Below are positions 17,776 to 41,946 of a stretch of 50,625 nt of DNA, in pieces. This DNA is from a virus (Duplodnaviria > Caudoviricetes). The position numbers and the translations under genes are program-made. The DNA lies in IMG/VR virus record IMGVR_UViG_3300001918_000035, positions 1 to 50,625 of that record, one strand, 5' to 3'. The notes under the pieces are model-generated. The model saw only the letters and a list, made by a program, of their open reading frames with translations. It was not told the origin of the DNA and searched no databases. Numbering within the stretch: the stretch's first letter is position 1; the number at the start of each line of letters is the position of its first letter.

Positions 17776-17841
17776 ATTCCGGTGCTGTCGCCCACGTCGT
17801 CATCGATTCGCCTCCAGCCAGCCTTCCCAGACAAGGTCGAG

Positions 17842-18902: not shown

Positions 18903-18914
18903 GGAGCTGTCGCG

Positions 18915-21099: not shown

Positions 21100-21119
21100 C
21101 CACCGAAGGAGGACTGCCT

Positions 21120-21881: not shown

Positions 21882-22471
21882 TGCAGCCCGGCTCCTCTCC
21901 GATCGCCGAGCCGCTGTGGACGGAGCTGCGCCGCCGGCGCCGCCCCGCAACGATCCGCGAACTCCAGCTCGCCACGGCCACGCGCCGCAGCTCTGTCGTC
22001 CAGCAGATCGGACGCTGGGAGCGGGCCGGGTTCGTCCGCCGAATCCCCGACACGAGGCCGCTTGCAATCGCCATGATCCCGACCGTCGCAAAATTTTCGA
22101 AGCCGCCCCGCGCCGTCTGCTCGGATCGCCCGGGTGCGCATCAGCGCCAACGCATCTGGGCCGCGATGCGGATCCTGAAGCGCTTCGACATTCCCGCCCT
22201 GGAAATCGCCGCACAGGCCAGCCGGCGCGGGGTCGAGACCTATCTGAACGTGCTGCTGCGCGCCGGTTACGCGAAGCGACTCAGCCGCGGCCACCACAAG
22301 CTCGGCACCTGGTCGACCTACCAGCTGGTGCGGGACACCGGGCGGAAATCCCCGGCGGTGTCGAACCGGGCCGGGGCCTGCCGGCTCGTCGATCGAAACG
22401 ACGGGTCCAGCCATGTCCTGAGCGCGGCGGTCTCCCCCTCTGAAGGGGGGGATATTAACCATGTTCGTTAA
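21881..22471 (+). CDS. early protein with tandem winged-HTH-like domains
   Basis: TGATG coupling; QRIWAAMRILKRF...YLNVLLRAGY...YQLVRDTG..P pattern typical after MuB in such phages. Confidence 0.7.
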   Translation: MQPGSSPIAEPLWTELRRRRRPATIRELQLATATRRSSVVQQIGRWERAGFVRRIPDTRPLAIAMIPTVAKFSKPPRAVCSDRPGAHQRQRIWAAMRILKRFDIPALEIAAQASRRGVETYLNVLLRAGYAKRLSRGHHKLGTWSTYQLVRDTGRKSPAVSNRAGACRLVDRNDGSSHVLSAAVSPSEGGDINHVR

Positions 22472-22850
22472 CCATAATTCCTCCGCCACCAACCTTACAA
22501 AGGCCGCCGCTGCCTGGGCGCCCGACATGCCCGAATGGGTCCGGCTGCTGGCGAGCGCCTGTGACGCGACCAACCAGCGCGCTGTGGCCGAGAAGCTGGG
22601 CAAGTCGAGCGGCTATGTCAGCCGCCTCATCAATCGCAGCTATGCCGGCAGCTATGCCGAAGCCGAGGTCCAGGTCCGCGCCGCCTTCGGCCGCGAAGGC
22701 GTGATCTGCCCGGTCTGGGGCGAGGCCATTCCGCTCTCCAGCTGCCTCCGCATCCGGCGGCGCAAGGACCCTCCCGATAACCAGGCGCGCCGCCTCTACG
22801 CGCGCGTCTGCCCGACCTGCCCGAACAACACCGATCGAGAGGAGGCCTGA
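22461..22850 (+). CDS. XRE-like HTH protein with Cys cluster
   Basis: NQRAVAEKLGKSSGYVSRLI; CPVWG...C...CPTCP. Confidence 0.75.
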   Translation: MFVNHNSSATNLTKAAAAWAPDMPEWVRLLASACDATNQRAVAEKLGKSSGYVSRLINRSYAGSYAEAEVQVRAAFGREGVICPVWGEAIPLSSCLRIRRRKDPPDNQARRLYARVCPTCPNNTDREEA

Positions 22851-22851
22851 C

Positions 22852-23106
22852 ATGCCTGTTTCAAGGCTGCTGCGCGGCCGTTGCGACGCCCGGGAAACGG
22901 CCAGGCCCGATGCGCTCGGGCGGCCCTTGAACGCTTACGTCCGGGAATGCCCCGCCTGTGCGGCCACCGGCTTCACCGCCCAGGGCTGGTGCGGCGAGTG
23001 TCGCGGCCTTGGCTGGTACGCCGTCGTTCGCCGGATCGACGTGCTGGCGACCGTCCTGATCGGCAGCGGCGCAGGCGCTGTCGCGATCCTGGTGCTCGCG
23101 CTGTGA
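22852..23106 (+). CDS. hypothetical Zn-ribbon protein with C-terminal hydrophobic helix
   Basis: CPAC..TG...CGECRGLG; GGAGG RBS. Confidence 0.55.
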   Translation: MPVSRLLRGRCDARETARPDALGRPLNAYVRECPACAATGFTAQGWCGECRGLGWYAVVRRIDVLATVLIGSGAGAVAILVLAL

Positions 23107-23318
23107 CCCGCCCCAGCGACGAACGAGGCCTTGTCGCCCTGATCGCCGGCCGGGGCGACGTGATCGTCTACCGGCCGGCCGAGCCCAACCACTGCCCGCG
23201 CTGCGGCCGCGCCAACTGGCTCGTCGGTCGCGTCACGGCGGAGTGCGCCAGCTGCGGGACCGCGCTTCCCCTTGTCCATCCATCCCCGTCCGCATTGCCC
23301 GAAAGGATCGAAGAATGA
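23103..23318 (+). CDS. small Zn-ribbon protein
   Basis: HCPRCG...AECASCG; GTGA/ATGA couplings at both ends. Confidence 0.6.
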   Translation: MTRPSDERGLVALIAGRGDVIVYRPAEPNHCPRCGRANWLVGRVTAECASCGTALPLVHPSPSALPERIEE

Positions 23319-23896
23319 CCGCGAGACCGCGCCGCAAGGCGCCGCGCCTGCAGGCGCCGCAGACGATCGAGGAAGCGACCGCATTGCTGGCCGACTATGC
23401 CGCCTGCCTCACCCAGGCGGAGCAGCTCCGCGCCGATGCCGACGCGTCGATTGCCAAGATCGAAGGCGCCCGCGACGAATTTCTGAAGCCGCTCGAGGAG
23501 CGGATGAAGGACAACTTCCGGCAGCTGCGCGCCTGGTGGGCCGTCGCCGGCGAGGCGATCACCGAGGGCAAGCGCAAGTCGGCCGAAATCGCCGGGTGCG
23601 TTCTGGGCGAGCGCATGACGCCGCCGAAGCTCGCCTTCGCGGCAGGGATGGATGAGGCAGACGCCGTAGACGAGATCCTCGCCAGCGATCTCGACGACGA
23701 GAAGCTGATCGTCACGACGATGAAGCTGATCAAGCCGGTAATCATCCAGCTGCTCAAGGACGAGAACAGCGACGACGCGCGCGAACTGCGAACGCGTGGT
23801 CTGTTCCTGAAGCAGACGACGGAGTTCTTCATCGACCGCGCGGCTCCGAAGCCGCCTGCGACCGAGCAGATCGAGACGGAGGGCGCTGGGCTGTGA
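23315..23896 (+). CDS. gam: Gam-like host-nuclease inhibitor / DNA end-binding protein
   Basis: Long helical N-terminus, GKRKS....G..G.R.TPP.L, Q..EFFI C-terminus; Mu early region. Confidence 0.8.
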   Translation: MTARPRRKAPRLQAPQTIEEATALLADYAACLTQAEQLRADADASIAKIEGARDEFLKPLEERMKDNFRQLRAWWAVAGEAITEGKRKSAEIAGCVLGERMTPPKLAFAAGMDEADAVDEILASDLDDEKLIVTTMKLIKPVIIQLLKDENSDDARELRTRGLFLKQTTEFFIDRAAPKPPATEQIETEGAGL

Positions 23897-24174
23897 GCGG
23901 ATCCTTCCTTCATGAAGCCGACGGCATTCGCGTGCCGGTCATCCATTCGGTGCTTCCAGCCGCCGCCGATCGCCGCCGCCTTTTCTGCGGTATCGCGGCC
24001 GGCGACTGCTCTGGCGGGATCGCCATCACGATCTGGGCCGAAGACGGCACGCAGCTGTCGGTCGAGCTGAACGACGACGCCTTCGATGTCTTCGCGGGCA
24101 TTCTGGCGGCCGCGATCGAGCGCCGCTCCGTTGCCATCCTCGGCAACCGGACGGGCGGGGAGACGATCCAGTGA
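23893..24174 (+). CDS. hypothetical early protein
   Basis: Overlapping start/stop with neighbours. Confidence 0.55.
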   Translation: MSGSFLHEADGIRVPVIHSVLPAAADRRRLFCGIAAGDCSGGIAITIWAEDGTQLSVELNDDAFDVFAGILAAAIERRSVAILGNRTGGETIQ

Positions 24175-24557
24175 CCGATCCTCGTCTCGAAGCTCTGGAG
24201 CAGCGCGTCACCGCGATTGAAGCGCGCCTCGGCGATCCTGCCGCCGAGCGCGCGGCGCGTGAAGCGATCGTACTCCGCATCGTCGATGCGGTTGCCGCTG
24301 TCCGCAACGTGCCGCGCGGAGAAATCCTGGGCGCCGCCCGCGATCACCAGGCGGCCGCCGCGCGCGCGATGATCTGCTGGATCGCCCGGCAGGCGACGAC
24401 GATCAGCATCTATCAGCTTGGCGGGCTGCTCGGCGGTCGCGACCATGCGACCGTCCGGTCGGCCATCGCGCGCGCCGAGCAGCTCCGCGCACGCGACTAT
24501 GAGTTTCGCGAGGCCGCCGATCGCGTCCTGGCTGCGGTTCGAGGGGACGCCGGATGA
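24171..24557 (+). CDS. DnaA C-terminal-like HTH protein
   Basis: EILG..R......AR...CWIAR......QLG..LGGRDHATVRSAI, DnaA domain IV signature. Confidence 0.85.
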   Translation: MTDPRLEALEQRVTAIEARLGDPAAERAAREAIVLRIVDAVAAVRNVPRGEILGAARDHQAAAARAMICWIARQATTISIYQLGGLLGGRDHATVRSAIARAEQLRARDYEFREAADRVLAAVRGDAG

Positions 24558-24856
24558 CGCCGAAACAGCGCCGCGCCCTGGAGTTCATCGGCGGCTTTGT
24601 CGAGACGACTGGGGTCAGCCCTTCCTACGAGGAGATTGCCGAAGGCATCGGAATTCCGCGCTCGAGCAAATCGCGCGTGTTCGCGATCGTCACATCCCTG
24701 ATCGAGCGCGGCTATCTCACCCGCGAAGGCGGCGCGGGACGGCCGCGCTCGCTGAGGCCGACAACAGCGGGCCGCGCGGTCATTCCTCAGGTCAGCCTGG
24801 CCGGCATCCCGACGTCGGCGCTCTATGCCGAGCTCGAGCGCCGCCGCCATGGGTAG
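24554..24856 (+). CDS. stand-alone LexA DNA-binding-domain protein
   Basis: MTPKQRRALEFI......GVSPSYEEIAEGIG..SKSRV...V..L.ERGYL; no peptidase domain. Confidence 0.8.
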   Translation: MTPKQRRALEFIGGFVETTGVSPSYEEIAEGIGIPRSSKSRVFAIVTSLIERGYLTREGGAGRPRSLRPTTAGRAVIPQVSLAGIPTSALYAELERRRHG

Positions 24857-25565
24857 ATCCTTCGCGAGCATCGCCGGTCGAGCGATCCGCACCGCCGAGG
24901 GCAAAGCCGACAGCCGGATAAAGCTGATGGCAGCGGTTCACGCCGCGGCGAAGCGCCACGGGATGGACGACGACGATCGCCGGGAGATGCAGCTGCAGCT
25001 GACCGACAAGCGGTCCATGGCGGACATGACGCTTGCCGATCTGGGGAAGCTCCTCGACCATCTCAACAAGGGCTGGAAGGGGCAGAGCGGCGGCCGCGCC
25101 ACCACGGGCAAGATCCGCGCGCTATGGTGGACGCTCTACTGGCTCGGCGCTGTCGCCGATCCGAGCGACCGCGCCATCGATGGCTTTGTCCGCCGGCAGG
25201 GCGGCCCCGCCAGCCTCCGCTTCGTCGACCATCGGGCGGCGCAGCCGATCATCGAGGCGCTCAAGAGCTGGGCCGCGCGTGAGGGCGTGAAGTGGCCCGC
25301 CGAAGCCGAGCTTGCGGAGATGCAGGCCGGCAATCCGGGGCTCACCATGCCGCTCTTCGAGCGCCACGCGGTCCTGCGCGCGATCGGGCGCAAGCTTACA
25401 GAGCGCGGCGCCCTGCACTTCGCTGGCGAGGTTGCCTACGCCCAGACCGCGCTCGCGCTCGGGCCAAATCATTTCGCCTGGGGCGCCCACGAGCTGGACG
25501 CCGCCATCCGGCTGCTCGGCAAGAAGCATCGCCGGCTGATCAATCCGAGAGGGAGCGTCGAATGA
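24849..25565 (+). CDS. gemA: Mu GemA/gp16-like regulator (DUF1018)
   Basis: HAAAKRHGMDDDDRR...TDKRSMADMT, KIRALWW.L, IIEALKSW..R. Confidence 0.85.
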   Translation: MGRSFASIAGRAIRTAEGKADSRIKLMAAVHAAAKRHGMDDDDRREMQLQLTDKRSMADMTLADLGKLLDHLNKGWKGQSGGRATTGKIRALWWTLYWLGAVADPSDRAIDGFVRRQGGPASLRFVDHRAAQPIIEALKSWAAREGVKWPAEAELAEMQAGNPGLTMPLFERHAVLRAIGRKLTERGALHFAGEVAYAQTALALGPNHFAWGAHELDAAIRLLGKKHRRLINPRGSVE

Positions 25566-26152
25566 GGATTCGCGTCCATATCGCGTTCAAGCCGCACGTC
25601 GTCCTCCCGGTCGGGCTGGCGCGACAGCACATCGTCGCCTGGGATCCGTCGGCGGGGCCGCTGATCGCCCAGCCAGAACCGGCGCCAGAGGGGCGGCGGA
25701 GCTGGAGCCAGGCGGAGCTGCAGCTCCTTCGCAACCTTTATCCGGCGGGCGGCGTCCCGGCCGTGCGGGCCGTCCTGCCAGCGCGGTCCGATCGGTCGAT
25801 CGAGAACAAGGCGGCCCGCCTCAGCCTGAAGCGCCTGGTCGCGAAGCGACACGACGAGCCGGTCCTGCCGGCGCCTTCAGCGACCCCACCGAGGCCGTCT
25901 ACGGCTTCGGCGCCGGCCAGGCCCGCCACTGCGGCGCCTCGCAAGCCAGTGCCGCCCAGCTGGGTCGAGCAGCAGATCGCAAAGCTCCAGGCGGCCAGAA
26001 ACGTGCTGCGCGGCCGAGGCGTCTCCGTCACGCCGAACGGGCGCGATCCGGGCACCAGCGGCTGGTGGGTCTCCGGATTCACGGCAGTGCTGACGTCGGC
26101 AGAGGTGATCGCTTACGCCGAGCAGCTGACTGCACCGACGGCGCCGGCATGA
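25562..26152 (+). CDS. hypothetical protein with Myb/SANT-like repeat
   Basis: WSQAELQLLRNLYP...LPARSDRSIENKAARL. Confidence 0.6.
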   Translation: MRIRVHIAFKPHVVLPVGLARQHIVAWDPSAGPLIAQPEPAPEGRRSWSQAELQLLRNLYPAGGVPAVRAVLPARSDRSIENKAARLSLKRLVAKRHDEPVLPAPSATPPRPSTASAPARPATAAPRKPVPPSWVEQQIAKLQAARNVLRGRGVSVTPNGRDPGTSGWWVSGFTAVLTSAEVIAYAEQLTAPTAPA

Positions 26153-26640
26153 ACGACGATCTTCCCACGATCGACGAGCTGCCGATCCCGGAGGACGTCC
26201 AGATCTCCGACAAATGGTCGGAGCAGATGGTCGAAATGGCGGGTCACATCGGGGCCTATCAGACCCTCCGCCTGCTCGAGCATTATGGCGGGCAGCAGCT
26301 GTCGTTCACAAAGGAGCTGGTCGAAGGCGATCTGGCCGAGCTGCTCGGCGCCGAGGCCGCGCAGATGCTCCGCAAGATTTATCTCGGCGAGCGCGTCCAG
26401 CTGCCGACGGGCAAGAACGCGATCGCCTACGCCAAGCGGCAACCCGTCCTGGCCGCTGTTCGATCGGGGGATCTGACCGGCCAGGACGCGACGAAGATCC
26501 TGAAGACGTCACGGACCTACGTCTCGCACTTGATCAACGACACGCTGGAAGGCACAGGTGTCGTCCCGCCGCCGCAGTTCCGGCGGCGCAGGCGCGGCGA
26601 TCCGCGCCAGATCGAGCTGTTCGAACAACAGCATAGCTGA
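26149..26640 (+). CDS. Mor/C-like late transcription activator
   Basis: HIG...TL.L..HYGGQ..; C-terminal HTH; last gene of the early operon. Confidence 0.65.
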   Translation: MNDDLPTIDELPIPEDVQISDKWSEQMVEMAGHIGAYQTLRLLEHYGGQQLSFTKELVEGDLAELLGAEAAQMLRKIYLGERVQLPTGKNAIAYAKRQPVLAAVRSGDLTGQDATKILKTSRTYVSHLINDTLEGTGVVPPPQFRRRRRGDPRQIELFEQQHS

Positions 26641-26646
26641 GGAGCG

Positions 26647-26662
26647 CTTCCGCCCGCGTAAG
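26647..26662 (+). promoter_or_regulatory. putative late-activator binding site for packaging operon
   Basis: CTTCCGC-CC-GCGTAAG near-perfect 7-2-7 palindrome. Confidence 0.55.
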
Positions 26663-26759
26663 GCGGATTTCTGAGGCGCCACGGGCATCGTCCCTCCACG
26701 TCGTTGGGGGAGGTTGTCCGGGTGCGTATCGTTCATCGCCGCTGGTCGGGGCGTCGGCT

Positions 26760-27053
26760 GTGAGCCTTCGCGACTTGGTCGAGATCGGCACCGCCCTGGC
26801 CGGGCTCACACCCATCATCCTGCTGGCCGGCTTCTGGTGGCTGGGACACCGCCTCGCGAACGCCGAGGCGCGGATCCACGCGATCGAGAGCGCCCGCGCC
26901 GGAGACCCGACGCCATCCGGCCTGTCCAAGGACATCGGCAAGGTTGCCGAGCGCGTGAAGGGAGTCGAGGCTCAGATCGACTCGCTCGCAGACCAGCTCG
27001 GGACGACGAACAACTACCTTCACGCTCTGATCGAGAAAGGGCTCAGCAAGTGA
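26760..27053 (+). CDS. DUF2730-like membrane-anchored coiled-coil protein
   Basis: N-terminal TM helix, then coiled coil; conserved position before gp26/gp27 in Mu-like phages. Confidence 0.65.
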   Translation: MSLRDLVEIGTALAGLTPIILLAGFWWLGHRLANAEARIHAIESARAGDPTPSGLSKDIGKVAERVKGVEAQIDSLADQLGTTNNYLHALIEKGLSK

Positions 27054-27343
27054 GCAGACCGTCCGCCATTCTCGAAATCATCCGTCGTGCCATCCTCGAT
27101 CTGCTCGACCAGATCGGCGGCGAGCATAATGACGACGTCATTGCACGAATGCTCGCAGGCCTCGGCCACCGGATCGCGCGGCGCGAGGTGCGTGAGCAGC
27201 TGCTGTGGCTGAAAGGCCAGGGCCTGGTCTCGGCCGAGGAAATCGGTCCATTCCTGGTCGCGAGGGTGTTGCCCGATGGCCGCGATGTCGCCGCCGGCTC
27301 GCTCGCCATCGACGGAGTCAGCCGCCACAAGACGGGGGATTGA
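27050..27343 (+). CDS. Mu gp26-like winged-helix protein
   Basis: RRAIL..L......N..V....L...G......VR.QL.WL..QGLV...GRDVAAG...IDGV. Confidence 0.8.
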   Translation: MSRPSAILEIIRRAILDLLDQIGGEHNDDVIARMLAGLGHRIARREVREQLLWLKGQGLVSAEEIGPFLVARVLPDGRDVAAGSLAIDGVSRHKTGD

Positions 27344-27883
27344 GTGGCGAAGCGGTCCACGATCGACAAGCTGCCGCCGCCGATCCGCGAGGCGGTCGAC
27401 GCCGCGATCAAGCGGGGCGCGACGATCGACGAGATCGTCGAGCAGCTGCACGCGCTCGGCGCCGATCATGTCAGTCGCTCCGCCGTCGGCCGCTACAGCA
27501 AGAACTATCGCGAGCTGGCCGATCAGCAGCGGCAGATCTCGTCGGTCGCCAAGGCGTTCGCGAGCGAGTTCGGAGAGGCGGACAATCTCCAGGGGCGGCT
27601 GATGATCCAGCTGCTCAACACCGTGATCACCCGGGCCATCCTGCCGGTGGCGAGCGGCGACGAGATCGAGCTCGACGGCAAGGAGCTCCACTATCTCGCG
27701 CGCGCCGTGAAGGACGTCGCCTCGGCCGCGAAAACCGACGTCGATCGCGAGGCGAAGATCCGCGAGGAAACGAAGAAGCGCGCCCGGGAGGAGGCCGCTG
27801 CTGCGGCCGAGGCCGCGGGCCGCCGTGGTGGAGCCAGCGAGGAGCTGATCGAACTCGTCAAGCGCGAAATCCTCGGCATCTGA
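27344..27883 (+). CDS. DUF3486 / Mu gp27-like small terminase
   Basis: RSTIDKLP..IRE, VSRSAVGRY, C-terminal REILGI. Confidence 0.88.
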   Translation: MAKRSTIDKLPPPIREAVDAAIKRGATIDEIVEQLHALGADHVSRSAVGRYSKNYRELADQQRQISSVAKAFASEFGEADNLQGRLMIQLLNTVITRAILPVASGDEIELDGKELHYLARAVKDVASAAKTDVDREAKIREETKKRAREEAAAAAEAAGRRGGASEELIELVKREILGI

Positions 27884-27884
27884 C

Positions 27885-28265
27885 GTGAGCCGCACCCAGC
27901 GCCTCGTCACCGGCCACGGCACCGCCAAACCATCCGATCTCGCGCAGCTCGCGATCGGCGCCGCTGACATTGCCCGCCGCCTCGGCCTGCAGGTTCGCCG
28001 CACCGGCTGCAGCCACTGTCGCACGTCGGGCTCGCGCTATCTCGAAATCGCCGACAAGTTCGGCCTCGTCTGGCGCTTCCGCATCTCCAACCATCGCCGG
28101 CCGAGCGCCAACCGCAACGCGGCGCCGCACTTCGACCTCGTCTCGATCGACGGCCGTTCGGGCCTGTCGCAGATCGAGTTCTGGCTGGGCGAGATCGCGG
28201 CCGGCCGCATCGCCTGGTTCGAACCCGAAGCCGCGCCGGCGCCGCGCATGCGGAGGCGGCGATGA
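27885..28265 (+). CDS. hypothetical protein between small and large terminase
   Basis: Coupled to terL (ATGA); SGSRYL...RFRISNH motif. Confidence 0.55.
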   Translation: MSRTQRLVTGHGTAKPSDLAQLAIGAADIARRLGLQVRRTGCSHCRTSGSRYLEIADKFGLVWRFRISNHRRPSANRNAAPHFDLVSIDGRSGLSQIEFWLGEIAAGRIAWFEPEAAPAPRMRRRR

Positions 28266-29836
28266 CGCGGAGCAAGGCGCTTGCATCGACGGCGCTCTCC
28301 ACCCCCACGGACAAAGCTCCGGCCGTCTTGCTTCCATATCAGGCGGAGGCATTCCGCCTAAGTTACGATCACCAACTCCTCTTCATCGAAAAGTCGCGAC
28401 GGACGGGCCTCACCTACGCTTTCGCTCCCAAGGCGGTCCTGGGCGCGGCTGCCGAGAAGCGTCCGAAAAACTTCTACTATGTCGGCTACAAGCTCGACAT
28501 GGCGTCGGAGTTCATCGGCTACTGCGCCCTGTTCGCGAAAATGTTCGACAAGCTTTGCACCATCAGTTCGGAGTTTCTCTTCGACGACGGCTCGGAGGAG
28601 GGGATCAAGGCGCTGAAGATCGACTTTCCTTCGGGCAAGTCAATCGTCGCGCTAAGCTCGCAGCCACGTTCGTTCCGCGGCATGCAGGGCGACTGGCTGA
28701 TCGACGAAGGCGCGTTCCACGACAACCTGCGGGAGGTGCTGAAGGCTGCGATCGCGCTGTTCATGTGGGGCGGCCATGGCGTCGTGATCTCCACCCACGA
28801 CGGCGAGGATAACCAGTTCAACACGGTCATCCAGGAAATCCGCGAAAAGAAGCGCGCCGGTTACGTCCAGCGGATCACGCTGAAGGAAGCGCTCGCGCAG
28901 GGGCTGTACAAGCGCATTTGCCTGGTCACGGGCGAGGACTGGTCGCCCGAGAAGGAAGCGGCCTGGGAGGCAAAGCTCCGCGACACCTATGCCGAAGCGG
29001 CAGAGGAAGAGCTGGACGTCATCCCCTCCGAAGGCTCTGGCTCGTACCTCGCCTACGCGACCATCAAGCGACGCATGACGCCGGACTTCCCGGTCGTCCG
29101 TCTGACCTGCCCGGCCGGTTTCGAACGGCAGGATGAGGCGGATCGCAGAAGTTTCATCCTCGACTGGCTGCGAGTCACGGTCGAGCCGCTCATCGGAGGG
29201 TTCCACGCCGATCGGGACAGCTACTTCGGTCAGGACTTCGCGCGGAGCGGCGACGTCTCGCCGCTCGCCTTCGGGCAACATGACGATGCCAAACGCCTGC
29301 TGGCGCGGTTCATTCTCGAAATGCGCAACGTGCCCTTCTCGGATCAGCAGTTCGTGCTGTTCTGGATCCTCGATCGCCTGCCGAGGTTCGCCGCCGGCAA
29401 GATGGACGCGCGCGGCAACGGCTCCGCTCTGGCGGAGGCGGCGCAGCAGAAATTTGGCTTCGATCGGATCGAGGCCGTCCAGGCGTCCGAAAAAACCTAC
29501 CTGGCCTTCATGCCCAAGCTAAAGTCGGCGATCGACGATGGCCAGCTGATCATGCCCGAAGACGAAGGCACGCTGGACGACCTCCGCCTGATCAAAATGG
29601 TTCGCGGCGTACCGATGATCCGGGGGCGGACTGTCGACAGCAAGGCAGATGGCGCGAAGGGCAAGCGTCACGGCGACAATGCGATCGCGCTGATGCACCT
29701 CGTAGCGGCTGCCGAAACAGCCGCCGGTCCTTTCGAGTTCGAGTCTGCCGGCTCACGCGAGGATGCCGGCGGATGGACGGACGGCTTCGCCGGCTTCGGC
29801 ATCGGCGGTCGCGACAATCTGATGGGGTTCTACTGA
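28262..29836 (+). CDS. terL: terminase large subunit (Mu gp28 family)
   Basis: LLPYQ, KSRRTGLT (Walker A), LIDEGAFH (Walker B), GQDFARSGD, HGDNAIA. Confidence 0.93.
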   Translation: MTRSKALASTALSTPTDKAPAVLLPYQAEAFRLSYDHQLLFIEKSRRTGLTYAFAPKAVLGAAAEKRPKNFYYVGYKLDMASEFIGYCALFAKMFDKLCTISSEFLFDDGSEEGIKALKIDFPSGKSIVALSSQPRSFRGMQGDWLIDEGAFHDNLREVLKAAIALFMWGGHGVVISTHDGEDNQFNTVIQEIREKKRAGYVQRITLKEALAQGLYKRICLVTGEDWSPEKEAAWEAKLRDTYAEAAEEELDVIPSEGSGSYLAYATIKRRMTPDFPVVRLTCPAGFERQDEADRRSFILDWLRVTVEPLIGGFHADRDSYFGQDFARSGDVSPLAFGQHDDAKRLLARFILEMRNVPFSDQQFVLFWILDRLPRFAAGKMDARGNGSALAEAAQQKFGFDRIEAVQASEKTYLAFMPKLKSAIDDGQLIMPEDEGTLDDLRLIKMVRGVPMIRGRTVDSKADGAKGKRHGDNAIALMHLVAAAETAAGPFEFESAGSREDAGGWTDGFAGFGIGGRDNLMGFY

Positions 29837-29837
29837 C

Positions 29838-31811
29838 ATGGCGGAGAAGCTGCCGGCCGAGCTGGCGCAGGAAATCGCGACCACCGCGGACGGGCGGGAC
29901 ATCACTCGGCCCTTCGTGCGCGATCTGGAGGAGCCGAAGGACCCGCGCCTGCTCGGCGCCGTCGACTGGGGCGTCTACGATCGCATCCTGCTCGACGATC
30001 AGGTCAAGTCGACCATGGCGCAGCGGATCTCCGCCGTGGTGTCGCGGGATTGGGACGTCCTGCCGGGCGACGACGAAGATCCCCGCGCCGTCGAGGCCGC
30101 CGATCGCCTGAAGTTGGTGCTCGAGGCGGCGTCGATCGACCGCGTCCAGGAGAAGATGCGCTGGGCGAGCTTCTACGGCTATGCGGTCGCCGAGCTGCTC
30201 TGGTTCGCCCGCGACGGCCGGCTGGATTTCACCCTGCGCGTCCGTCACGCCCGCCGCTTCCGCTTCACGCCGGCAGGTGAGCTGCGCCTGCTGACGATGG
30301 CGGCGCCGCGCGGCGAGCCGCTGCCCGATCGCAAATTCTGGGTCGTCCGCGCCGGCGCCACCGACGATGACGAGTTTTACGGCCGCGGCCTGGCCGAGTG
30401 GCTCTACTGGCCGGTGCTGTTCAAGCGCAACGGCCTGCGCTTCTGGAACAAGTTCCTCGATCGCTTCGCCCTGCCCACCGCGCTCGGCAAATATCGGCCG
30501 GGCGCGCCGCGCGAGGAAATCCAGCGGCTGTTGCAGGCGCTGCAGGCGATCTCGAACGACAGCGGCATCGCCATCCCGGACGGCGCGGCGGTCGAGCTGC
30601 TCCAGGCCGCGAACGCCGGCCCCGAATTCGCCGCCATGCCGCGCTACATGGACGAGGCGATCGCCAAGATCGTGCTTAGCCAGACGATGACGACGGAGGA
30701 CGGCGCCGGCGGCCGCGCCACCGGCCAGATCCATGCCGGCGTGAAGCTGGAGGTCATCAAGGCCGATGCCGATACGGACAGCGACAGCTTCAACGAAGGC
30801 CCGGCGCGGTGGTGGACCGATCTGAACTTCGGCCCCGACGTCGCGAGCCCGCGCTTCGTCCGCATCGTCGAAGAAGAGGCCGACCTGAAGCGCCAGGCGG
30901 AGGTGGACGAGGCGCTGGATCGGCTTGGCTGGGCGCGCAACGACGACAGCTTCCGCGACACCTTTGGCGACGGATACGATCGGAAGCCCGAGCCGCAGGC
31001 GCCGGCCGTCGTTCCGCGCCTTCCCGCCAACGACGACGCTGACCCGGATGACGAGCAGCAGCAGAGCCCGCGCGCCGAGATCAGCTTCGCCGCGAACGAT
31101 CCGGCGCCGCTCTACGTCAAGCGGCGGCTGAAAAACGCCTCCAGGCTCGTTGCATGGGCGAAGAAGGCCGGGTTCAAGTCTACGATCGACCCGGCCGACA
31201 TGCACGTCACGGTGCTCTATTCCCGGCGCCCGGTCGATTGGTTCAAGCTGGCCGACGACTGGGGCGGCGGCGAGCCGCTCGTCATTGGTCCGGCCGGGCC
31301 GCGCCGGATCGTCCGGTTGGGCGACAAGGGCGAGGCTGTTGCCCTGCTTTTCGGCAGCGGGCGGCTCCAGTGGCGGCACGACGACATGATCTCGCAGGGA
31401 GCGAGCCATGACCACGCCGAATATTTGCCGCACGTGACGATCAGCTACGACGCCGGCGACGTCGATCTGGACGCGCTCGAGCCGTATGACGGCCCGCTGA
31501 CCTTCGGGCCCGAAGAGTTCGAGCCGATCCAGGAGGGCTGGCACGAGAATGTCCGGCAGGTCAGCCTCGCTGAGGGCGAAGGCGACATCGTCGATGCGGT
31601 CGCCGCGCAGCTGGTCGAGCAGGGCCTGACGCCGATGAGCCCCCTGCTGATCCCGCTGGTCGAGGCGATCGAGAAGTCCGGCTCGGCCGAGGATCTGGAG
31701 GCGCACCTGCTTGCCGCCGTCGGAGCCGGGAAAGCGGAACAGTTGGCCGATCTGCTGGCGCGCGCCGGCTTCGGCATGCGCTTGGCTGCCGAAGGCGACG
31801 CCGACCGCTGA
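29838..31811 (+). CDS. DUF935/Mu gp29 portal protein with inserted Acb1-like 2H phosphoesterase domain
   Basis: Portal motifs YGRGL...YWP..FK...FW..F.DRF..P...GKY, IVLSQTMTT; insert aa ~415-575 with MHVTVLYS and PHVTISY. Confidence 0.9.
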   Translation: MAEKLPAELAQEIATTADGRDITRPFVRDLEEPKDPRLLGAVDWGVYDRILLDDQVKSTMAQRISAVVSRDWDVLPGDDEDPRAVEAADRLKLVLEAASIDRVQEKMRWASFYGYAVAELLWFARDGRLDFTLRVRHARRFRFTPAGELRLLTMAAPRGEPLPDRKFWVVRAGATDDDEFYGRGLAEWLYWPVLFKRNGLRFWNKFLDRFALPTALGKYRPGAPREEIQRLLQALQAISNDSGIAIPDGAAVELLQAANAGPEFAAMPRYMDEAIAKIVLSQTMTTEDGAGGRATGQIHAGVKLEVIKADADTDSDSFNEGPARWWTDLNFGPDVASPRFVRIVEEEADLKRQAEVDEALDRLGWARNDDSFRDTFGDGYDRKPEPQAPAVVPRLPANDDADPDDEQQQSPRAEISFAANDPAPLYVKRRLKNASRLVAWAKKAGFKSTIDPADMHVTVLYSRRPVDWFKLADDWGGGEPLVIGPAGPRRIVRLGDKGEAVALLFGSGRLQWRHDDMISQGASHDHAEYLPHVTISYDAGDVDLDALEPYDGPLTFGPEEFEPIQEGWHENVRQVSLAEGEGDIVDAVAAQLVEQGLTPMSPLLIPLVEAIEKSGSAEDLEAHLLAAVGAGKAEQLADLLARAGFGMRLAAEGDADR

Positions 31812-33097
31812 TGACCGATATTCGCGCCTCGATCGGCTTGCCGCCCGACGATACGGTCGAGGCCTTCCGCGCGAAGGGCGTCTATCCGGTCACGCCGAAC
31901 TGGGATGCGGTGTGGCAGGAGGAGAATGCTCGCGCCTTCTACGTCACCAAGCTTCTCGATCGCACGCTCGCCGAGCGCGTCCGCGCCTCGCTCGACGATG
32001 CCATCGCCAAGGGTGGCACGTTCGAGCAGTGGAAAGCAGCGATCGTTCCCCAGCTCCAGGAGGCGGGCTGGTATGGCCGCGTCGAGAACCGGCCCGAGCT
32101 GACCGGCGTCGACTATCCGATCTTCGTCGGCAGAAGCCGCCTGCGGACGATCTACGACACGAACCTGCGGATGGCGCGCGCCGCCGGCAAATGGAAGCGC
32201 ATCCAGGCGCTGAAGCGGGTGGCACCCTATCTGCGCTACACGGCGATCCTCGACACCCGAACCCGGCCGGAACACCGGCTGTGGCACGGCACGATCCTGC
32301 CCGTCGACCATCCCTGGTGGGACACGCATTTTCCGCCATGCGGCTGGCACTGCCGTTGCAACGTCGTCCAGCTCTCCGATCGCGATCTCCGCGCCCGCGG
32401 CTGGAAAGTGACCGCCGAACCGCCCGGCGGCCGTAACCGGCCATGGCGCCGCTCTGACGGCACGATCGTCCAGGTACCGAACGGCATCGACCCGGGCTTC
32501 GCCTACAACCCCGGCAAAGCGCACATGCGCGGCCTGGTACCCCCGCCAGTCGAAGGGCCCCTCGCGACGCCCGCCATCCGACCAGCCGATCTGCCGCCGC
32601 TGCCGGCGCCGCGCGAGAGACGCGAGACCCTTCCGGACGAGCTGAGCGACGAGCAGGCGATCGGACGCTTCCTCGCGCGCTTCCCCGGCCGCCGTGCGGC
32701 CGACGGCACTGTCCTGACACAGGACGCGGCTGGTGAGCCGCTGATCCTCGATGATCGCTTCTTCCGCAGGGGTGAAGGCTCGCCGCGCGAAGGCGCGCTG
32801 AAGCTCCGCGCGGACCGGAAGCGCCTCCTGCTGCAGCTCGCCGAGACGCTCCTCGATCCGGACGAGATCTGGTGGACGTGGCAGTCGATCGAACTGGCCA
32901 ACGGCCGAACCATCCAGCGCGTGGCGCGCCGCTATGTCGCCCGATTCCTGATCGACGGCCAGGACCTGCCGCTCGTCGTCGTGATGCAGACGGATGCCGA
33001 CGGGTGGCGCGGGGTGACGGCCTATGTCGGGAACAATCTCGGCTACGCGGACAAGGAGCAGGTGCGGGGAGGCTGGCTTGCCTACCGCCGCCAATGA
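31811..33097 (+). CDS. Mu gpF (MuF) minor head protein fused to PBECR2-like nuclease domain
   Basis: RLRTIYDTNL, D.RTRPEH..WHG, PPCGWHCRC, DPGFAYNPG; C-terminal LAETLLDPDEIW...RRYVARF...W.GVTAY...RGG.L.YRR. Confidence 0.88.
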   Translation: MTDIRASIGLPPDDTVEAFRAKGVYPVTPNWDAVWQEENARAFYVTKLLDRTLAERVRASLDDAIAKGGTFEQWKAAIVPQLQEAGWYGRVENRPELTGVDYPIFVGRSRLRTIYDTNLRMARAAGKWKRIQALKRVAPYLRYTAILDTRTRPEHRLWHGTILPVDHPWWDTHFPPCGWHCRCNVVQLSDRDLRARGWKVTAEPPGGRNRPWRRSDGTIVQVPNGIDPGFAYNPGKAHMRGLVPPPVEGPLATPAIRPADLPPLPAPRERRETLPDELSDEQAIGRFLARFPGRRAADGTVLTQDAAGEPLILDDRFFRRGEGSPREGALKLRADRKRLLLQLAETLLDPDEIWWTWQSIELANGRTIQRVARRYVARFLIDGQDLPLVVVMQTDADGWRGVTAYVGNNLGYADKEQVRGGWLAYRRQ

Positions 33098-33252: not shown

Positions 33253-33573
33253 ATGGGTAAGCTATCACCAACAGCAGAGGATCGCGCCGTCTCGGTGGCG
33301 GAGGGCGTGCTGGATGCGCCGGGTGCGTCGCGGCCGGTCCGGGTGAACGGGCGCACCAATGTCTCCGTTTCCGGGGTGTTCACCGGCACGCTCCAGCTAG
33401 AGCGCAGCTTCGACGGCGGCGACACCTGGATCGCGATCACCGCCGCGGGCGCGCCGATCGAGTTCACTGGCCCCTTCTCGGAAGAAATAGAGGAAGCGGA
33501 AGCCGGCATGCTATACCGCTTGAACGCGGTTGCATTGAGCGCTGGCGCAGCGAACTGGCGCTTCAGCCGATGA
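33253..33573 (+). CDS. small beta-rich virion protein (possible spike base)
   Basis: GGAGG RBS; [24 protein letters not shown]...YRL; ATGA-coupled to the giant gene. Confidence 0.65.
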
Positions 33574-36500
33574 TCCGCAGCGTCCTAAAGGGCGCCGGAC
33601 GCGGAGGCAGCGGCGATCTGCGCCTGACGCCGCCCGTCATCCCCCAGGACGCCGAGGGCGATGTGTCGCGCCTGCGATCAAACCTGCGCGGCGCGCTTAC
33701 GTTCACGAAGCTCTCGGGCGCCTCCGTGATCGCTATCGCCGCGAACGGAGACGTCTCGCTATCGGCGGCTCTCGGCGAAGGCGGCACCGCCGTTTTTCGC
33801 GCCCGCGCCCAGAACACCAGCGGCGATGCGATTGAGCGCGAGCTCACCCTCCGCGCCGCCGGCCCGGGGCCTGCGCCAGCGCCGGCGCCCAGCGACACGA
33901 TGCCGGATCCTTTCGCATTTCAGGGGATCGACGACGCCGAGCCGGAGACGCTGTACACCTCGAACGCTGTGACCCCGACCGGCTTCGATTCGCCGGCGCC
34001 GATCAGCATCGGCGGCAGCCATGCCGACCAATATCAGATTAACGATAGCGCGTGGACCGCCGCACCGGGCACCTTCCCACCCGGAGCGAGCGTCCGGGCT
34101 CGGCTGACGACGTCCGCGAGCTACGAAGCAACGGCGCGCGCTGCGGTGACGATCGGCGGGGTGACGGCGTACTTCGACGTCACGACCCGCGCTGCGCCCG
34201 CCCCGACGCCCAGCCCGACTCCGAGCCCAACGCCCACGCCGACGCCCACTCCCACCCCGGCCTTCAGCCCGGCGGACCTGTTCGCCAGCGGCGAGTTGGG
34301 CGCATTCGCCGATTTCGGCCGCGCCGAGACATTGTTCGCCGACACCGCTCGCACCCAGCCGGCCGGCGCTGGAGGCGCGATCGCTGGCGTCACCGACCTA
34401 AGCGGTCGCGGCAATCACTTCACCAGCGGGTCGGTCAACAGCCGGCCCGCGATCGCCGATCTGGGCGGCGTCCCCTGCGCGTTCTTCGAGGGGCAGGGCT
34501 GGTCAGGCAGTCCTAACGAGCCGGACCATCTCCGCACGCCCAATCTCACTATCCCTCAGCCCTGCACGATGCTCGTGATTGCTCGTCCGGCAGTCCGACA
34601 GACGTCCGTGATCGTCGCCGGGAACAACTCGGTCTGGGAACCCGGGATCGCGATTGAGCAGCAGGGCGCCAGCCCGGCTTATGAACGCTTCCGCATCCGC
34701 GCCGGATCGGTGCTGGCCCCGGTTGCCAACGCGTCGCTCTGGGACGGATGGAGCGTGCTCCTGGCCGAGTTCAACGGCACGTCCAGCACTCTCTGGCTGA
34801 ACGGGGTGCAGCATGTCACCGGCAACGCGGGTGCCGCAGGCTTCGCGAACCTGGCTTGGCGGCTCGGCGGCTCGAACTTCGGCAGCGGCTTCAACGGCCA
34901 CATTGCCGCCGCTCTGCTGATCGGTCGACAGCTCACGCCGGCCGAGCGCGCGGATCTCACTGCCTGGGCCAACGGCCGGATCGTCCCGGGCGGCTCGCCG
35001 TCGCCCAGCCCGTCACCCAGCCCAACGCCAACCCCATCTCCGACGCCCAGTCCGTCTCCGACGCCCAGCCCATCGCCAACGCCGAGCCCGTCGCCATCCC
35101 CCAGCCCGACGCCGAGCCCGACCGGGACGATCGTCCAGCCCGCCGCGAGCTACGTCGGTCAGAACACCGCGCCGATCGCGATCAACAATGCCGCGCACAC
35201 CCCGGAATATTACGCTCTCTGGTCGGGCTTTGGCGGCAAGGCCGCGTACGACGCGATCCAGCCCGATCTGACGCCGCCACCGGACGGCGATCCGGTCACC
35301 AGAAACGGCGAGCCCACTTTCACCTGGAACATTGACCAGGACGATTTCGAGATCGAGGCGCAGGATTTCGCGCTCGACATGACCTGCCTCGCGCCAGGCC
35401 TGGGGCCGATCGATGGCAGAACAGACCGCATCGATCTCTACCTGGAGAACGCTCAGCCGACTTCGCTTGATGGCCACAGCTATCAGTGGATCACCAGCGA
35501 CAAGGCGCATGGCGGCTATCCGGCGATCCGCGCGGTCCTGCGCTTCGATCGGAACGGAAAGCACGCGCTGAAGGCGATTTTCCGCTGTCAGGGCGGGATC
35601 GAGGCGATGCGTGAGGCGGTGCTGTGGGTGAACATCCCGTCGCTGCCGAACTATATCAATCGGCACGAGCGGAGCCTCTATGTCGATCCTGTCAACGGCC
35701 AGGACCGCATCGACGACGGTGCCGATCGCGGCGGGCCGACCAAACCGTTCCGGACCGAAGAGTTCGCGCTCGGCTTGATGCGTGGGACCGGCGTCGCCTT
35801 CAATGGCAGCAACTGGCTGCATGCGACGCACGAGGGCGGCTACATCTACATGCTGCCAGGCCTCCATCTGTTCGATGGCGTCGCGCAGGCGAATGCGGGC
35901 GACAATCCGAACTGGGCCAACACCCAGCTTCCCGTGCGGATGCGGCCTGCTCCCGGGGTGGCAAAGAGCGAGGTGATTGTCACCCGCTCCGAGCAGTACT
36001 TCGAGATGTCGTCGGCCTCCGCCGACGACGGGCATTGCCTTTTGCGGATCGCCGGGTCGATGAGCGGCACGACGATGACCGTCACCCTGCTCGACGATCA
36101 GGGAAGCGGCGTCCGCGTGCACGACGGCATGCTCATCCACTATCGGCGAGCCGACGGTTCGAACACACGCGCCAACACCCGCGTCGTGCGCCAGATCCTG
36201 CCGCTGCAGGCAGGCGAGGCGATCGGCGGCGTCGGCCGCTACACCGTCGGGAACATCCCGGAGCCGACCGGGCCAATAAGCCTATGGGCTTTCTCGATCC
36301 CGAACATCGTGCACCGCAAGATCCGCTTCGCGGACTGTCTGGTCGACGGTCATCGGTGGCATCGCATCGCTGGCAGCTCGCTGATGTTCTCGGTCCATTT
36401 CATACGCTGCAGCTGGAGAAAGGACTTCGACATACGCGGACCGGAAAGCCCGGTACGACCCGGAGCGCCGATGTTCCCGCGCGACACCAGCAGTTTTGGC

Positions 36501-37991
36501 AATGTCATCGTGCAAGCCGCGGACGCGCGGGTCGCATTCTTCGACTGCGATGGCGACATCAACAGCCTGGGCGGCGCCGAGACCCTGATCAACTGCGGCT
36601 TCAACGCCTCTTGGGACGCTCTCTACAATGGCCGCACCGCCGCCGCGACGGCCACGCACCTGAACCTGATGAACGTCCAGATCAATCAGGTGCCGAAACA
36701 CAAGTGCCGCCTGCATCATGCGCCGGAGATTGAGGTCGTCAGCACGGAGTTCCTGCCGGCCGGCTCGCAGGCAATCGGCGGCGAAGCGGCCGTGGACACG
36801 GTGCGCCTCCATTTCAGCGGCAACGACTATGCGACGCCCGAGGCTGACATTTGCGTCACGGTGCTCAACGGCGACCGCACCCACATCGACTATTTCTCCG
36901 GCGTTTCCGACTGCGTGGTCCAGAACGGCCGGCTGATGAGCGTACGTCTTCGCCGCCGCCTTGATCAGGACCTCGTCGATCTCGAGAACAGCAATGGCGG
37001 TCAGCCCGTCAAGGTCATGATCTCGAAGGTGAAGCACGCGGACAGCGCGATCCAAACCTTCGAGAATGCGCCGCTCACCAACGTCGGCATGATCGGCTTT
37101 TCGGCGACGACCGACCTCGGCGGGCAGATGATGCTGCTGACCACGAACACCGTGCAAAGCTTCAACGCCTCTACCGGGCAGCCGGGCAGCGGCACGAACA
37201 GCTTCCAGGCAACGGTGGCGGCGGATGGCCGGACACTGACGCTGGTCAATGCGCCTGGGCTGCGGTTGCGCCATGGCTGGTTGGTCGGCCGGTCGGCCGC
37301 GGAGCGAGCGTTTATCGTTCCCGGCGGGACTGCGGACAACGTTGTCGGCACCGCTTGGCGCCTCTCGGAGCCGCTGACGCCGGGCACCTTTTCGGGGTGG
37401 CAGTTCATCACCTGCTTCTCTCGCGCGGCGCTCGTGAACACGGTGATGCAGCGCCGGCCGATGGGCACCAACTCGACCTGGGGCACCAACGCCGGTCAGA
37501 ACCTGGCCAGTTGGACCTCGCAGATCGCGAACCGGGGCGTGCGCGATGTCGGCTTGATGTTCGCCACCTTGCTCGGCCGCCATCAGATCGGCCACCATTC
37601 TCTGGGATTGTGGCTCCTGACCGACACCTTCATGAAATTCGAGCGGTTCCGGATCGATGCCTCGATTTTGGACGATATCAGCACCGGCGGCGCTCGCCCG
37701 CTGACCGCCGCCGAGCTACGCGGCGAGCGCGTGCGTCTGCTGTCGCAGGGAGGGCCGCTGCCGAGCAGCAGCGGCTCACCGGTCCCGCCAGGCCTGGTGG
37801 CTCCGGTGCTCGGCGATCTCGATTATGCGTCGATCAGTCCAGCAGCGTTTCGAATGCCGGCGGAATATTCGACGCTCGGCCCCTGGTGCACGCAAGCAGA
37901 TGTCGACTTCATGCCGTTCGACCTGTTCGGCAATCCGCGCCGAGTGGGAGACCCCGTCGGCGCGGTCGCCAGGCTTCAGGGTCAGGCGTAA
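33570..37991 (+). CDS. giant modular fibre/spike-like protein (Pro-Thr/Ser linkers, LamG-like domain, probable beta-helix C-terminus)
   Basis: 1473-aa ORF; FSPADLF...DLSGRGNH...FNGHIA..LLIGR.LT..ER LamG-like block; YVDPVNGQD...GGPTKPFRT motif that often starts beta-helix domains. Confidence 0.7.
34194..34260 (+). repeat. (Pro-Thr/Ser)n coding linker repeat
   Basis: [22 protein letters not shown]. Confidence 0.85.
34994..35123 (+). repeat. (Pro-Ser/Thr)n coding linker repeat
   Basis: About 21 SP/TP dipeptides with varied codons. Confidence 0.85.
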
Positions 37992-38578
37992 ACGACGTGA
38001 GTTCTGCGACGCGCGCGCAGTGCCCCGCCCATCAGGCCGAAGCCACCGAGCATCATCGCCCAGCTCGCGGGCTCTGGCACGACAGCGAACGCCGCCGGCG
38101 CCGACCAGTAGCCGCCCGGGCTGTTGGCGCTGGTGATCACGAACTCGGTGACCAGCTGCTGGCCGCGGAACGCGCCCTCGATCACGCCGCGCATGTCGTT
38201 CTCGGTCTCGGAAAGCGCCAAGCCCCCAACCGAGCCGAAGATCCGGAGGCGATCGTCGGCGGCGGTGTAGATCACGTCGAAGCTGGACGGGACGAAGCGT
38301 TCGAAGCGCCAATTGATCGAGGGCGGCAGGCCGCTCAGGGCGAAATCAGCGCTTGTGTCGACGTCAATCAGCTTGACCACCTGCGCGTTGCGCCGCCACT
38401 CCCCGGCGGACGGGTCGAAAGGGTCGTTCGGCGTGATGATCAATGGCGTTTCTGCGCTCGGCGCGCCAATGCGGTCGAACGCCGACGCTATCACTCCGAT
38501 TTGGGTGGTGATCGTCGCAGCGCCTGTTGGCGCAGCGCTGAGAGTTGCGGCAGCCGCCGCGGCAAATATGAGTCGCAC
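37982..38578 (-). CDS. PEPxxWA-CTERM sorting domain protein
   Basis: Signal peptide [17 protein letters not shown]; C-terminal [26 protein letters not shown]. Confidence 0.92.
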
Positions 38579-39024: not shown

Positions 39025-39428
39025 ACCGCCGGCTGGCGCGCGCCGACCACTTGCTGCCCGTCGATCCGGACCGTCGAGAAGCGCCCTTCCCCGGCCCGCC
39101 AGGCGCCGGCGACGTGGCAGACGAACAATTGCTGGTCGACGGCCCAGACCAGCATGCCCTCGCGCGGGCGGAGGAAGCGCCAGCCGCCGTCCGTCCAGCC
39201 GGCGAGCGCGCCGGCCGCGTCCGCCCAGAGGCCGGTCGGCGCGTCGCCGACCAGCCAGCACTGGCCGATCGCCGGGTCGGCCGGCGGCGCGTTCACGCCC
39301 GCCGCCTCGACCGCCGCGCACAGGCCGAGGTCGATCAGCACGAGCGCCTCATTATGGGTGAGATCCTTCTGCGCCTGGGCTGCCTCCAGAAAAGGGAGGC
39401 CGTGGCGCGCGGTCGCGACATCGGTCAT
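39009..39428 (-). pseudogene. DUF2793 protein, C-terminally truncated by prophage insertion
   Basis: LPFLEAAQAQKDLTHNEAL..ID, W....G.LA.W..GGWRF..P..G; ends abruptly VVGARQPAV|VTGQ* in phage-end sequence. Confidence 0.8.
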
Positions 39429-41587: not shown

Positions 41588-41946
41588 GTTCCGATGATCT
41601 CCCAATCCGGCGCGCCGGGCCGTTCGACGACGCGGCCCAGGCCGGCGTCCGCATGGATCAGGCCGCCGTCACTCAGAATGCCGAGGTGAAGCTGGCCCGG
41701 CCCCGGCCGCATCAGCAGCACGTCGCCCGGCCGCCGCTCCGCCGCCGCCGGGACGAAGCCCGCCGCCTCCAGCGCCGCCGCGATCCGGCGCGGATCGCCG
41801 CCGCGCAGCGCATAGCCGGTCGGGGCCGGCGCCTCAGCCGCCCAGGCGACCAGCCCGATACAGTCGAGACCCGTGGCGGGGTCCCGCCCGTGAAGGCGGA
41901 AGCGGGCGCCGATCAGGGCGCGGGCGCGGGCGGCAAGGTCGCTCAT
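41551..41946 (-). CDS. NlpC/P60 peptidoglycan endopeptidase (GTA g14)
   Basis: ARALIG.RFRLHGRDP.TGLDCIGLV...HLGI...IHAD. Confidence 0.88.
   Translation of the reverse strand: MSDLAARARALIGARFRLHGRDPATGLDCIGLVAWAAEAPAPTGYALRGGDPRRIAAALEAAGFVPAAAERRPGDVLLMRPGPGQLHLGILSDGGLIHADAGLGRVVERPGAPDWEIIGTWRLCSLVPSAR

Follow-up and report, generated by a model that had tools for sequence, protein, structure and literature searches.

A Mu-like portal protein with an Acb1-family phosphoesterase domain inserted between scaffold-type motifs

An Acb1-family domain within a Mu-like portal gene

The virus record IMGVR_UViG_3300001918_000035 of IMG/VR is a provirus with Mu-like genes, and the window analyzed here is the whole of this record, 50,625 bases, rather than its portal gene alone. 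Our subject is that portal gene, which includes a 2H phosphoesterase domain of the Acb1 family. It lies on the plus strand at 29838-31811, encodes a 657-residue product of 72.7 kDa, and matches PF06074, PF23474 and the portal family phrog_113. Four segments follow one another along it, all read from the plus strand. The first is a Portal_Mu (DUF935) core at residues 46-377 (29973-30968; PF06074, E 3.7e-93), most of which is modelled with a high predicted local distance difference test score (pLDDT); the assignment is supported by the hidden Markov model (HMM) of the family, by the terminase large subunit (TerL) gene just before the portal gene and by the MuF gene that comes next. The second is a disordered linker of acidic and proline residues (395-414; 31020-31079), with pLDDT below 50 at 395-419. 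The third is the Acb1-family domain at residues 424-570 (31107-31547), recognized by Pfam, by its AlphaFold model and by Foldseek, and the fourth is a conserved helical C-terminal tail of 7.9 kDa (580-657; 31575-31808) with four predicted helices at 584-652. In the AlphaFold model of the full-length protein confidence is low (pLDDT <50) at 395-419 and again at 579-582. In the portal frame, 31080-31574 reads ISFAANDPAPLYVKRR...MHVTVLYSR...GASHDHAEYLPHVTISY...VSLAE.

It is apparent from related proteins that the Acb1 domain is a true insertion into the portal. Homologues were taken as the best 120 of 416 proteins with E ≤ 1e-3 (8000 scored), and 118 of these best 120 have the PF06074 plus PF23474 architecture while two lack Acb1. 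One of the two, P0005 (500 residues), is 87–89% identical to the window portal without residues ~415–575; its acidic linker runs directly into VSLAEGEGDIVD and then into the same tail. The other, P0060 (501 residues), also has no Acb1 domain. Both retain the VSLAE/ASFAE sequence and the C-terminal tail, so that the resumption of the normal helical tail behind the insert, proposed in the first-pass annotation of this DNA, is borne out by these natural relatives as well as by the four modelled helices. Alignment columns 408–412, in the linker just before the first of two flanking motifs described below, are mostly gaps among the 120 homologues.

The composition of the insert (GC 0.669, and 0.873 at third codon positions) resembles that of the portal core (0.697 and 0.906), and a recent foreign acquisition is unsupported. 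Direct DNA repeats at the two flanks, considered as a possible insertion scar, match at about 10 of 14 bases by hand count; the match is explained by shared codons and is uninformative. Given this composition and the existence of insert-less relatives, the Acb1 cargo is old in this lineage, yet dispensable for portal function. No isolated phage with the combination of Portal_Mu, Acb1 and tail was found, and none of 382 matching phage records covers at least 80% of the portal.

The insert is a bona fide member of the Acb1 family by both sequence and fold. PF23474 (Acb1) matches the whole portal with E 1.3e-37 and 129.2 bits, the insert alone with 133.7 bits, and the DNA at 31107-31547 with 133.3 bits, all against a cut-off of 27, whereas the LigT-type model PF13563 (2_5_RNA_ligase2) reaches 14.6–18.9 bits and stays under the same cut-off of 27. 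A sequence search of the PDB returns the C-terminus of the Pam3 portal (8hds, E 4e-30) and then the Acb1 of Erwinia phage FBB1 (7t26, E 7.6e-7). The AlphaFold model of residues 415–579, for which 117 homologues were used, averages a pLDDT of 87.4 and falls below 50 only at model residues 1–4 (ISFA) and 160–165. Foldseek against the PDB places FBB1 Acb1 (7t26/7t27) first, with E 5.9e-9 and a template modelling (TM) score of 0.80 normalized to target length, and the phosphodiesterase of Burkholderia phage BCSR5 second; E. coli LigT ranks lower, with E 7.4e-5 and a TM score of about 0.52. The Acb1 resemblance suggested in the first-pass annotation thus holds in both the profile and the structural comparison, and the alternative that the insert is closer to LigT is ruled out by the sub-cut-off score of PF13563 and the lower Foldseek rank.

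The residues expected of a 2H phosphoesterase are in place. The first HxT motif, H456-V-T458 (31203-31211), corresponds to H44/T46 of T4 Acb1, and the second, H532-V-T534 (31431-31439), to H113/T115; both are on the plus strand, and H456 and H532 are where the first reading of the ~160-residue insert had put them. Every sequence feature named in that reading is present, its LYV.R motif as LYVKR at residues 425–429. Among the 118 insert-bearing homologues the tetrad is conserved as H456 in 115, T458 in 118, H532 in 117 and T534 in 111, with serine replacing the last in five more. Residues of T4 Acb1 described in a passage of Hobbs et al. 2022 include Y12, W74, F107 and W147, which stack on the nucleobases, and E141, which contacts adenine. 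When T4 gp57B is aligned to the profile of the insert family, E141 falls on E562 and W147 on W568; the equivalence of Y12 with Y426 comes from a hand reading of the LYV motif only, hmmalign having left the T4 N-terminus unaligned. We consider it likely that the insert is an active Acb1-like enzyme.

Motifs shared by the portal and the scaffold

Two short motifs bracket the insert, and both are putative protease sites. The upstream motif is ISFAA at residues 415–419 (31080-31094, plus strand) and the downstream motif is VSLAE at residues 575–579 (31560-31574, plus strand); both fall in disordered segments modelled at low confidence, precisely at domain junctions. They are well conserved among the 120 portal homologues: the upstream motif has S in 91, F in 110, A in 114 and A in 111 and is followed by DDPRPLYV, and the downstream motif has S in 98, F in 82 or L in 37, A in 115 and E in 103. 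Similar sequences are repeated in the product of the head maturation protease and scaffold open reading frame (ORF) at 13464-14495 on the minus strand (phrog_976, E 8.2e-84), whose probable start at 14420 gives a protein of 318 residues. The copies there are VSFGAS, PAFAEA, ASFAER, VSFGEE, VSLGEA, VSFAMP and VSLAEA. The pattern S[FL][AG]E occurs four times in this protein against 0.05 expected, a count reached in 0 of 500 shuffles, and once in the portal against 0.04 expected (18 of 500 shuffles); it is absent from the other 37 of the 39 ORFs tested. Five scaffold copies are conserved among 120 scaffold homologues, namely [SA]FAE (F in 119, A in 120, E in 116), SFAE (E in 116), VSFGE (F in 120, E in 117), VS[LF]GE (E in 120) and VSFAAP (S in 113, F in 119, A in 118, A in 116, P in 120). 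The shuffles, together with conservation in both portal and scaffold homologues, rule out a chance motif, and the earlier observation that the insert is bounded by sequences repeated in the scaffold extends to both protein families. It is therefore plausible on comparative grounds that the SF[A/G][E/A]-type flanks are protease sites. Since the upstream flank matches the conserved scaffold copy VSFAAP exactly, the main objection to cleavage at ISFAA, which concerns its final residue, is weakened.

A corresponding arrangement is present in phage Mu itself (L002, NC_000929). The C-terminus of the portal gp29 is reported to be probably removed by protease I of Mu, the original work being that of Grimaud in 1996. 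The gpI/Z copies of the Mu motif are AALSAE, ASLSAV, AALSAQ, AALSAM and AVLSAD; the form [AV][ASV]LSAx is repeated five times at gpI 223–337, with AALSAE at 223–228, and LSA occurs six times in gpI/Z against 0.25 expected (0 of 1000 shuffles). The same AALSAE recurs in gp29 at 427–432, leaving a C-terminal fragment of 80 residues and 8.9 kDa, where the equivalent fragment of the window portal has 78 residues. According to a passage of the Mu cryo-EM paper, the virion structure lacks the final 124 residues of gp29, a loss ascribed there to cleavage by protease I. We regard AALSAE as a candidate gpI cleavage motif; our literature search found neither a Mu-type protease cleavage site nor a description of the flanking motif. 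The Mu gp29 (gpH) portal and the window portal are thus alike in having a homologous core and a scaffold-shared motif 78–80 residues from the C-terminus, and differ in that Mu carries no cargo domain and has AALSAE rather than VSFAE/VSLAE.

The relationship extends to other Mu-like loci. In 27 loci with a protease near the portal, the scaffold repeats, read by eye, are of the form hydrophobic-[AGS]-[ED]. Some dozen of these loci have a clearly matching copy, also read by eye, in the portal tail 40–107 residues from its end. Scaffolds that use Asp (L040, L052 and L053) have Asp in the portal copy too. One cyanobacterial Mu-like portal (L070, 740-2977) has an InPase domain (PF18823, E 2.7e-26) directly after AALFSE, followed by a tail with more copies of the motif, and its relative in L074 (8959-11646) has no InPase there. 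The presence of InPase at the same place in the portal indicates that this arm accepts different cargo. The L074 portal has about 330 additional C-terminal residues with no Pfam match.

Proposed packaging and release, and the competing explanations

Several known systems bear on the interpretation. The closest enzymes are T4 gp57B and FBB1 Acb1 (7t26/7t27; Hobbs et al. 2022), which share with the insert PF23474, the 2H fold, the HxT/HxT tetrad, counterparts of E141, W147 and the tyrosine of the LYV motif, and a similar size (152 versus 160 residues); they differ in being encoded by a free-standing gene, whereas here the domain lies within the portal gene and would be expressed with head proteins, and identity is about 22–33%. 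In T4 (L007, 3592-4411) acb1 (57B) is the immediate neighbour of ipI, which encodes an internal protein that is packaged. The words 'portal', 'fused' and 'virion' are absent from Hobbs et al. 2022. Portal-Acb1 fusions do occur in isolated phages, and all five tested (Pseudanabaena Pam3 gp3, Rhizobium RHEph04, Pseudomonas phiPSA1, Synechococcus Ssp-JY40 and Yong-M2-251) have Acb1 at the C-terminus of a PF06381 portal. These resemble the window portal in carrying Acb1, 35–53% identical, on the end that faces the capsid interior, and differ in that the portal is Phage_portal_3 rather than Portal_Mu and Acb1 forms its very end, no tail following; no matching scaffold motif was seen by eye for the PF06381-type fusions of Pam3, RHEph04 and phiPSA1. 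The Pam3 structure paper does not mention 'phosphoesterase', 'ligase' or 'cleav', and the absence of 8hds from the fold matches suggests that the Acb1 domain is not modelled in it.

The T4 internal proteins are targeted to the capsid, cleaved by gp21 and ejected with the DNA. They and Alt, whose packaging is cited in a passage of Iyer et al. 2017, offer a parallel in the proposed logic, with an anti-host protein loaded into the prohead, freed by a protease at hydrophobic-x-E and delivered with the DNA; they differ in using an N-terminal capsid-targeting sequence, where targeting in the present case would be by covalent fusion to the portal, in a fixed number of 12 copies. Fusions of 2H domains to portal and MuF proteins were catalogued as 'polyvalent proteins' by Iyer, Burroughs, Anand, de Souza and Aravind, with the suggestion, in the passages concerned, that the 2H domains degrade the nucleotides of nucleotide-activated defence (Iyer et al. 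2017), and a passage of Iyer et al. 2022 takes such fusions to suggest packaging in the head and injection against SMODS, cyclic mononucleotide and CRISPR signalling. Those architectures share with the window portal an effector enzyme on portal or MuF in a head-gene context and the same predicted function; the relevant sections discuss an autoproteolytic MPTase, and not head-protease processing, flanking motifs or an insert before a retained tail. The Acb1-portal fusion is an architecture that is both common and already catalogued, and its function has been predicted in print; the first-pass suggestion of a counter-defence within a core structural gene stands as to the fusion itself, which is real, and overstates its novelty. 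By another route, the ICP3 protein Gp15 is described in part of its source as a virion ejection protein that inhibits CBASS, the antiphage signalling system based on cyclic oligonucleotides.

We propose that the window portal bears a complete and probably active Acb1-type cyclic-oligonucleotide phosphodiesterase as cargo, and we hold this to be the best explanation of the whole and a fairly probable one. The Acb1 domain would sit in a flexible C-terminal arm of the portal that points into the capsid, and the enzyme would be made late, along with the head proteins. Because portal C-termini face the capsid interior, twelve copies would enter each prohead within the portal ring. A gpI-like protease, whose scaffold carries five to seven copies of SF[A/G][E/A], would then cut after VSLAE (579) and take off the 78-residue tail as in Mu, a maturation step that we consider likely. 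The protease probably also cuts after ISFAA (419), which would free a 160-residue, 17.8 kDa enzyme within the head; we lean, by a little, towards release of a free Acb1 domain in the prohead. Cleavage at both sites predicts fragments of 47.0, 17.8 and 7.9 kDa. In length, the stretch delimited by the motifs is close to free T4 Acb1, and the tryptophan of the C-terminal lid lies 11 residues from the predicted new end. The enzyme would hydrolyze cyclic di- or trinucleotide signals of the CBASS type, either where the phage is made or, following ejection, in the next host; for the Acb1 family, the activity in question is metal-independent cleavage of 3′3′-cGAMP and cyclic trinucleotides, with rescue from CBASS. 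Ejection into the next host, for which the analogy is with the T4 internal proteins, is offered tentatively and strikes us as rather doubtful.

Several observations weigh against this proposal. First, the upstream motif ends in A and not E, and should the protease require Glu there, only the tail would be removed and the enzyme would stay tethered to the portal and could not be ejected. Second, an acidic (isoelectric point 5.3), folded domain of 17.8 kDa would need to pass through the tail channel. Third, the positions equivalent to W74 and F107 of T4 Acb1 are V492 and H526, which are non-aromatic, in a part of the alignment that is uncertain. Fourth, our literature search found no report of cleavage, virion proteomics or an enzyme assay for any portal-fused Acb1. 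Finally, there is no enrichment of CBASS in fusion-carrying hosts, in comparisons that are underpowered. Acb1 matches occur in 7 of 401 sampled Sphingomonadales genomes, each in an open frame of 610–701 residues; SMODS exceeds its cut-off in 24 of the 401, in none of the seven Acb1-positive genomes (one has a sub-threshold match) and in one of five hosts of the fetched loci. There is no SMODS match in the window's own record, which holds only flanks of the host genome.

A different account would have the enzyme act only in the phage-producing cell, with the portal fusion supplying Acb1 at head assembly, at the moment when CBASS is triggered. In a passage of a 2026 review, activation of type I CBASS is said to be determined by the prohead protease together with further proteins of the head, a late trigger, and an Acb1 coupled to the head genes would then be on hand at the time of the alarm. 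Edwardsiella phage ZHS (L006, 2116-2715) fits this account as well, with a free-standing Acb1 of 199 residues (PF23474, E 2.8e-22) encoded between terminase and portal, and so does the tethering expected if the upstream SFAA is uncut. (The ZHS protein is annotated 'prohead protease'.) However, action confined to the producing cell leaves unexplained why two unrelated families of portal, PF06074 and PF06381, both have Acb1 at the end facing the inside of the capsid, and why conserved scaffold-type motifs bracket the insert, and the few portal subunits per virion are a poor route to much enzyme; we consider this account a serious alternative, but an unlikely one.

The motif might instead mark a contact between scaffold, portal and capsid rather than a cleavage site, in which case Acb1 would be a permanent feature of the inner face of the portal. 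Its fourth position is variable (E/A/M here and E/V/Q/M/D in Mu), one copy lies within the protease domain itself (residues 80–83), and the literature documents no Mu-type cleavage site that we could find. Set against these are the placement of the motif in disordered linkers exactly at domain junctions, the Mu copy, whose predicted 80-residue, 8.9 kDa fragment is consistent with the missing C-terminus of gp29, and the need of a protease that clears the prohead for multiple sites in the scaffold. The T4 protease gp21, moreover, cuts at L/I-x-E. A contact role thus seems distinctly unlikely. More improbable still is a 2H domain directed at RNA or other substrates (2′,3′-cyclic phosphate ends, 2′-5′ oligoadenylate-like molecules or a Usb1-like RNase activity), for which several points do speak: part of Iyer et al. 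2017 suggests that 2H domains on MuF or portal proteins act as RNases or break down 2′-5′ oligoadenylate, PHROGs names the domain family 'RNA ligase' (phrog_755), LigT folds are still detectable by Foldseek, and the equivalents of W74 and F107 are non-aromatic. Against it, Acb1 leads both the HMM scores (129 bits against sub-cut-off models of the LigT type, PF13563 and PF02834) and the structural ranking, E141 with its adenine contact, W147 of the lid and the tyrosine of LYV are all conserved, and a Pfam scan of 36 window ORFs turned up no RNA ligase partner.

An enzyme delivered ready-made by the virion would take effect ahead of any signal from the host. To our knowledge, all anti-CBASS proteins characterized so far need to be synthesized after infection. 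The case is testable, as it presents two catalytic histidines, two predicted cleavage sites, natural insert-less relatives and cultured phages (Pam3, RHEph04 and phiPSA1) with a related fusion. The motif repeated in the scaffold recurs, in Mu and its relatives, in the tail of the portal; it is a candidate for the site that the Mu-type head protease recognizes, and packaged cargo of other phages could be found by means of it. Unlike the fusion, whose function had been predicted, the flanking motif and its protease logic were not described in the literature that we searched, and in use it may outweigh the fusion finding. The protease-gated cargo slot, together with this candidate motif, seems to us the part most worth following. 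In its broadest and most speculative form, which we would not presently expect to hold, the disordered C-terminal arm of Mu-like portals would be a general cargo slot of this kind, holding whole enzymes (Acb1 here, InPase in the cyanobacterial relative) between copies of each phage's scaffold-type motif; 12 copies would be freed per head and pass along with the DNA into the next host, disarming cyclic-nucleotide immunity before any phage gene is expressed.

Organization of the rest of the record

The Mu-like early and packaging genes lie on the plus strand of the window. Next to an S24 repressor on the minus strand (18197-18868) are transposase A (19297-21099, with rve and Mu-transpos_C domains) and transposase B (21120-21881), with Gam and GemA among the early genes, gp27 (27344-27883) and TerL (28262-29836; PF03237) directly upstream of the portal, all on the plus strand. 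The MuF-like head protein at 31811-33097 (plus strand; PF04233, E 2.8e-22) bears at its C-terminus a nuclease-like domain, PBECR2 (PF18810, E 7.9e-20), an architecture of the MuF plus PBECR2 type described in a passage of Iyer et al. 2017, and is a candidate for a second packaged effector in this phage. The portal stop and the MuF start overlap by one base, at 31811, and one portal homologue (P0076, 1088 residues) has Portal_Mu, Acb1 and Phage_Mu_F domains all in a single protein.

The genes for the protease/scaffold, cement protein, major capsid protein, gp36, tail tube and tape measure occupy the first 14.5 kb (1-14495) on the minus strand; protease, capsid and tail genes are thus on the opposite strand and upstream of the early genes (18197-33097 on the plus strand), where in Mu they follow MuF. 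A protease homologue is present in the fetched flanks of none of the 26 Sphingomonad-type loci (L009-L033 and L064) and near the portal in 27 of 54 other loci, in 26 of them downstream of it, some flanks being short. Since none of the 26 has the protease in its flanks, the split-strand layout looks normal for this group of phages. The reading of the minus-strand head genes, some 15 kb upstream, as a sign of a broken or rearranged prophage was rejected as an artefact.

Three other regions deserve mention. The stretch at 14600-18100, between the protease gene and the repressor, has a GC content of 0.61–0.63 against about 0.68–0.70 in the flanking phage genes; family matches of the ORFs in it are weak (phrog_16499) or lacking, and it may hold moron or defence cargo. 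Downstream of MuF and a 111-residue ORF is a plus-strand ORF of 1473 residues (33570-37991) with long Pro/Thr/Ser-rich linkers, no Pfam match and a weak PHROG match to a short tail fibre (E 8.8e-7), which may encode a host-recognition protein. A PEP-CTERM protein is encoded at 37982-38578, and from 39.4 kb on the GC content climbs to about 0.74 over a gene-transfer-agent (GTA)-like tail cluster on the minus strand (39400-50625; Rcc01698_C, Phage-tail_3, NCTSP and DUF2460). This composition and the GTA-like tail genes identify 39400-50625 as host flank within the provirus record.

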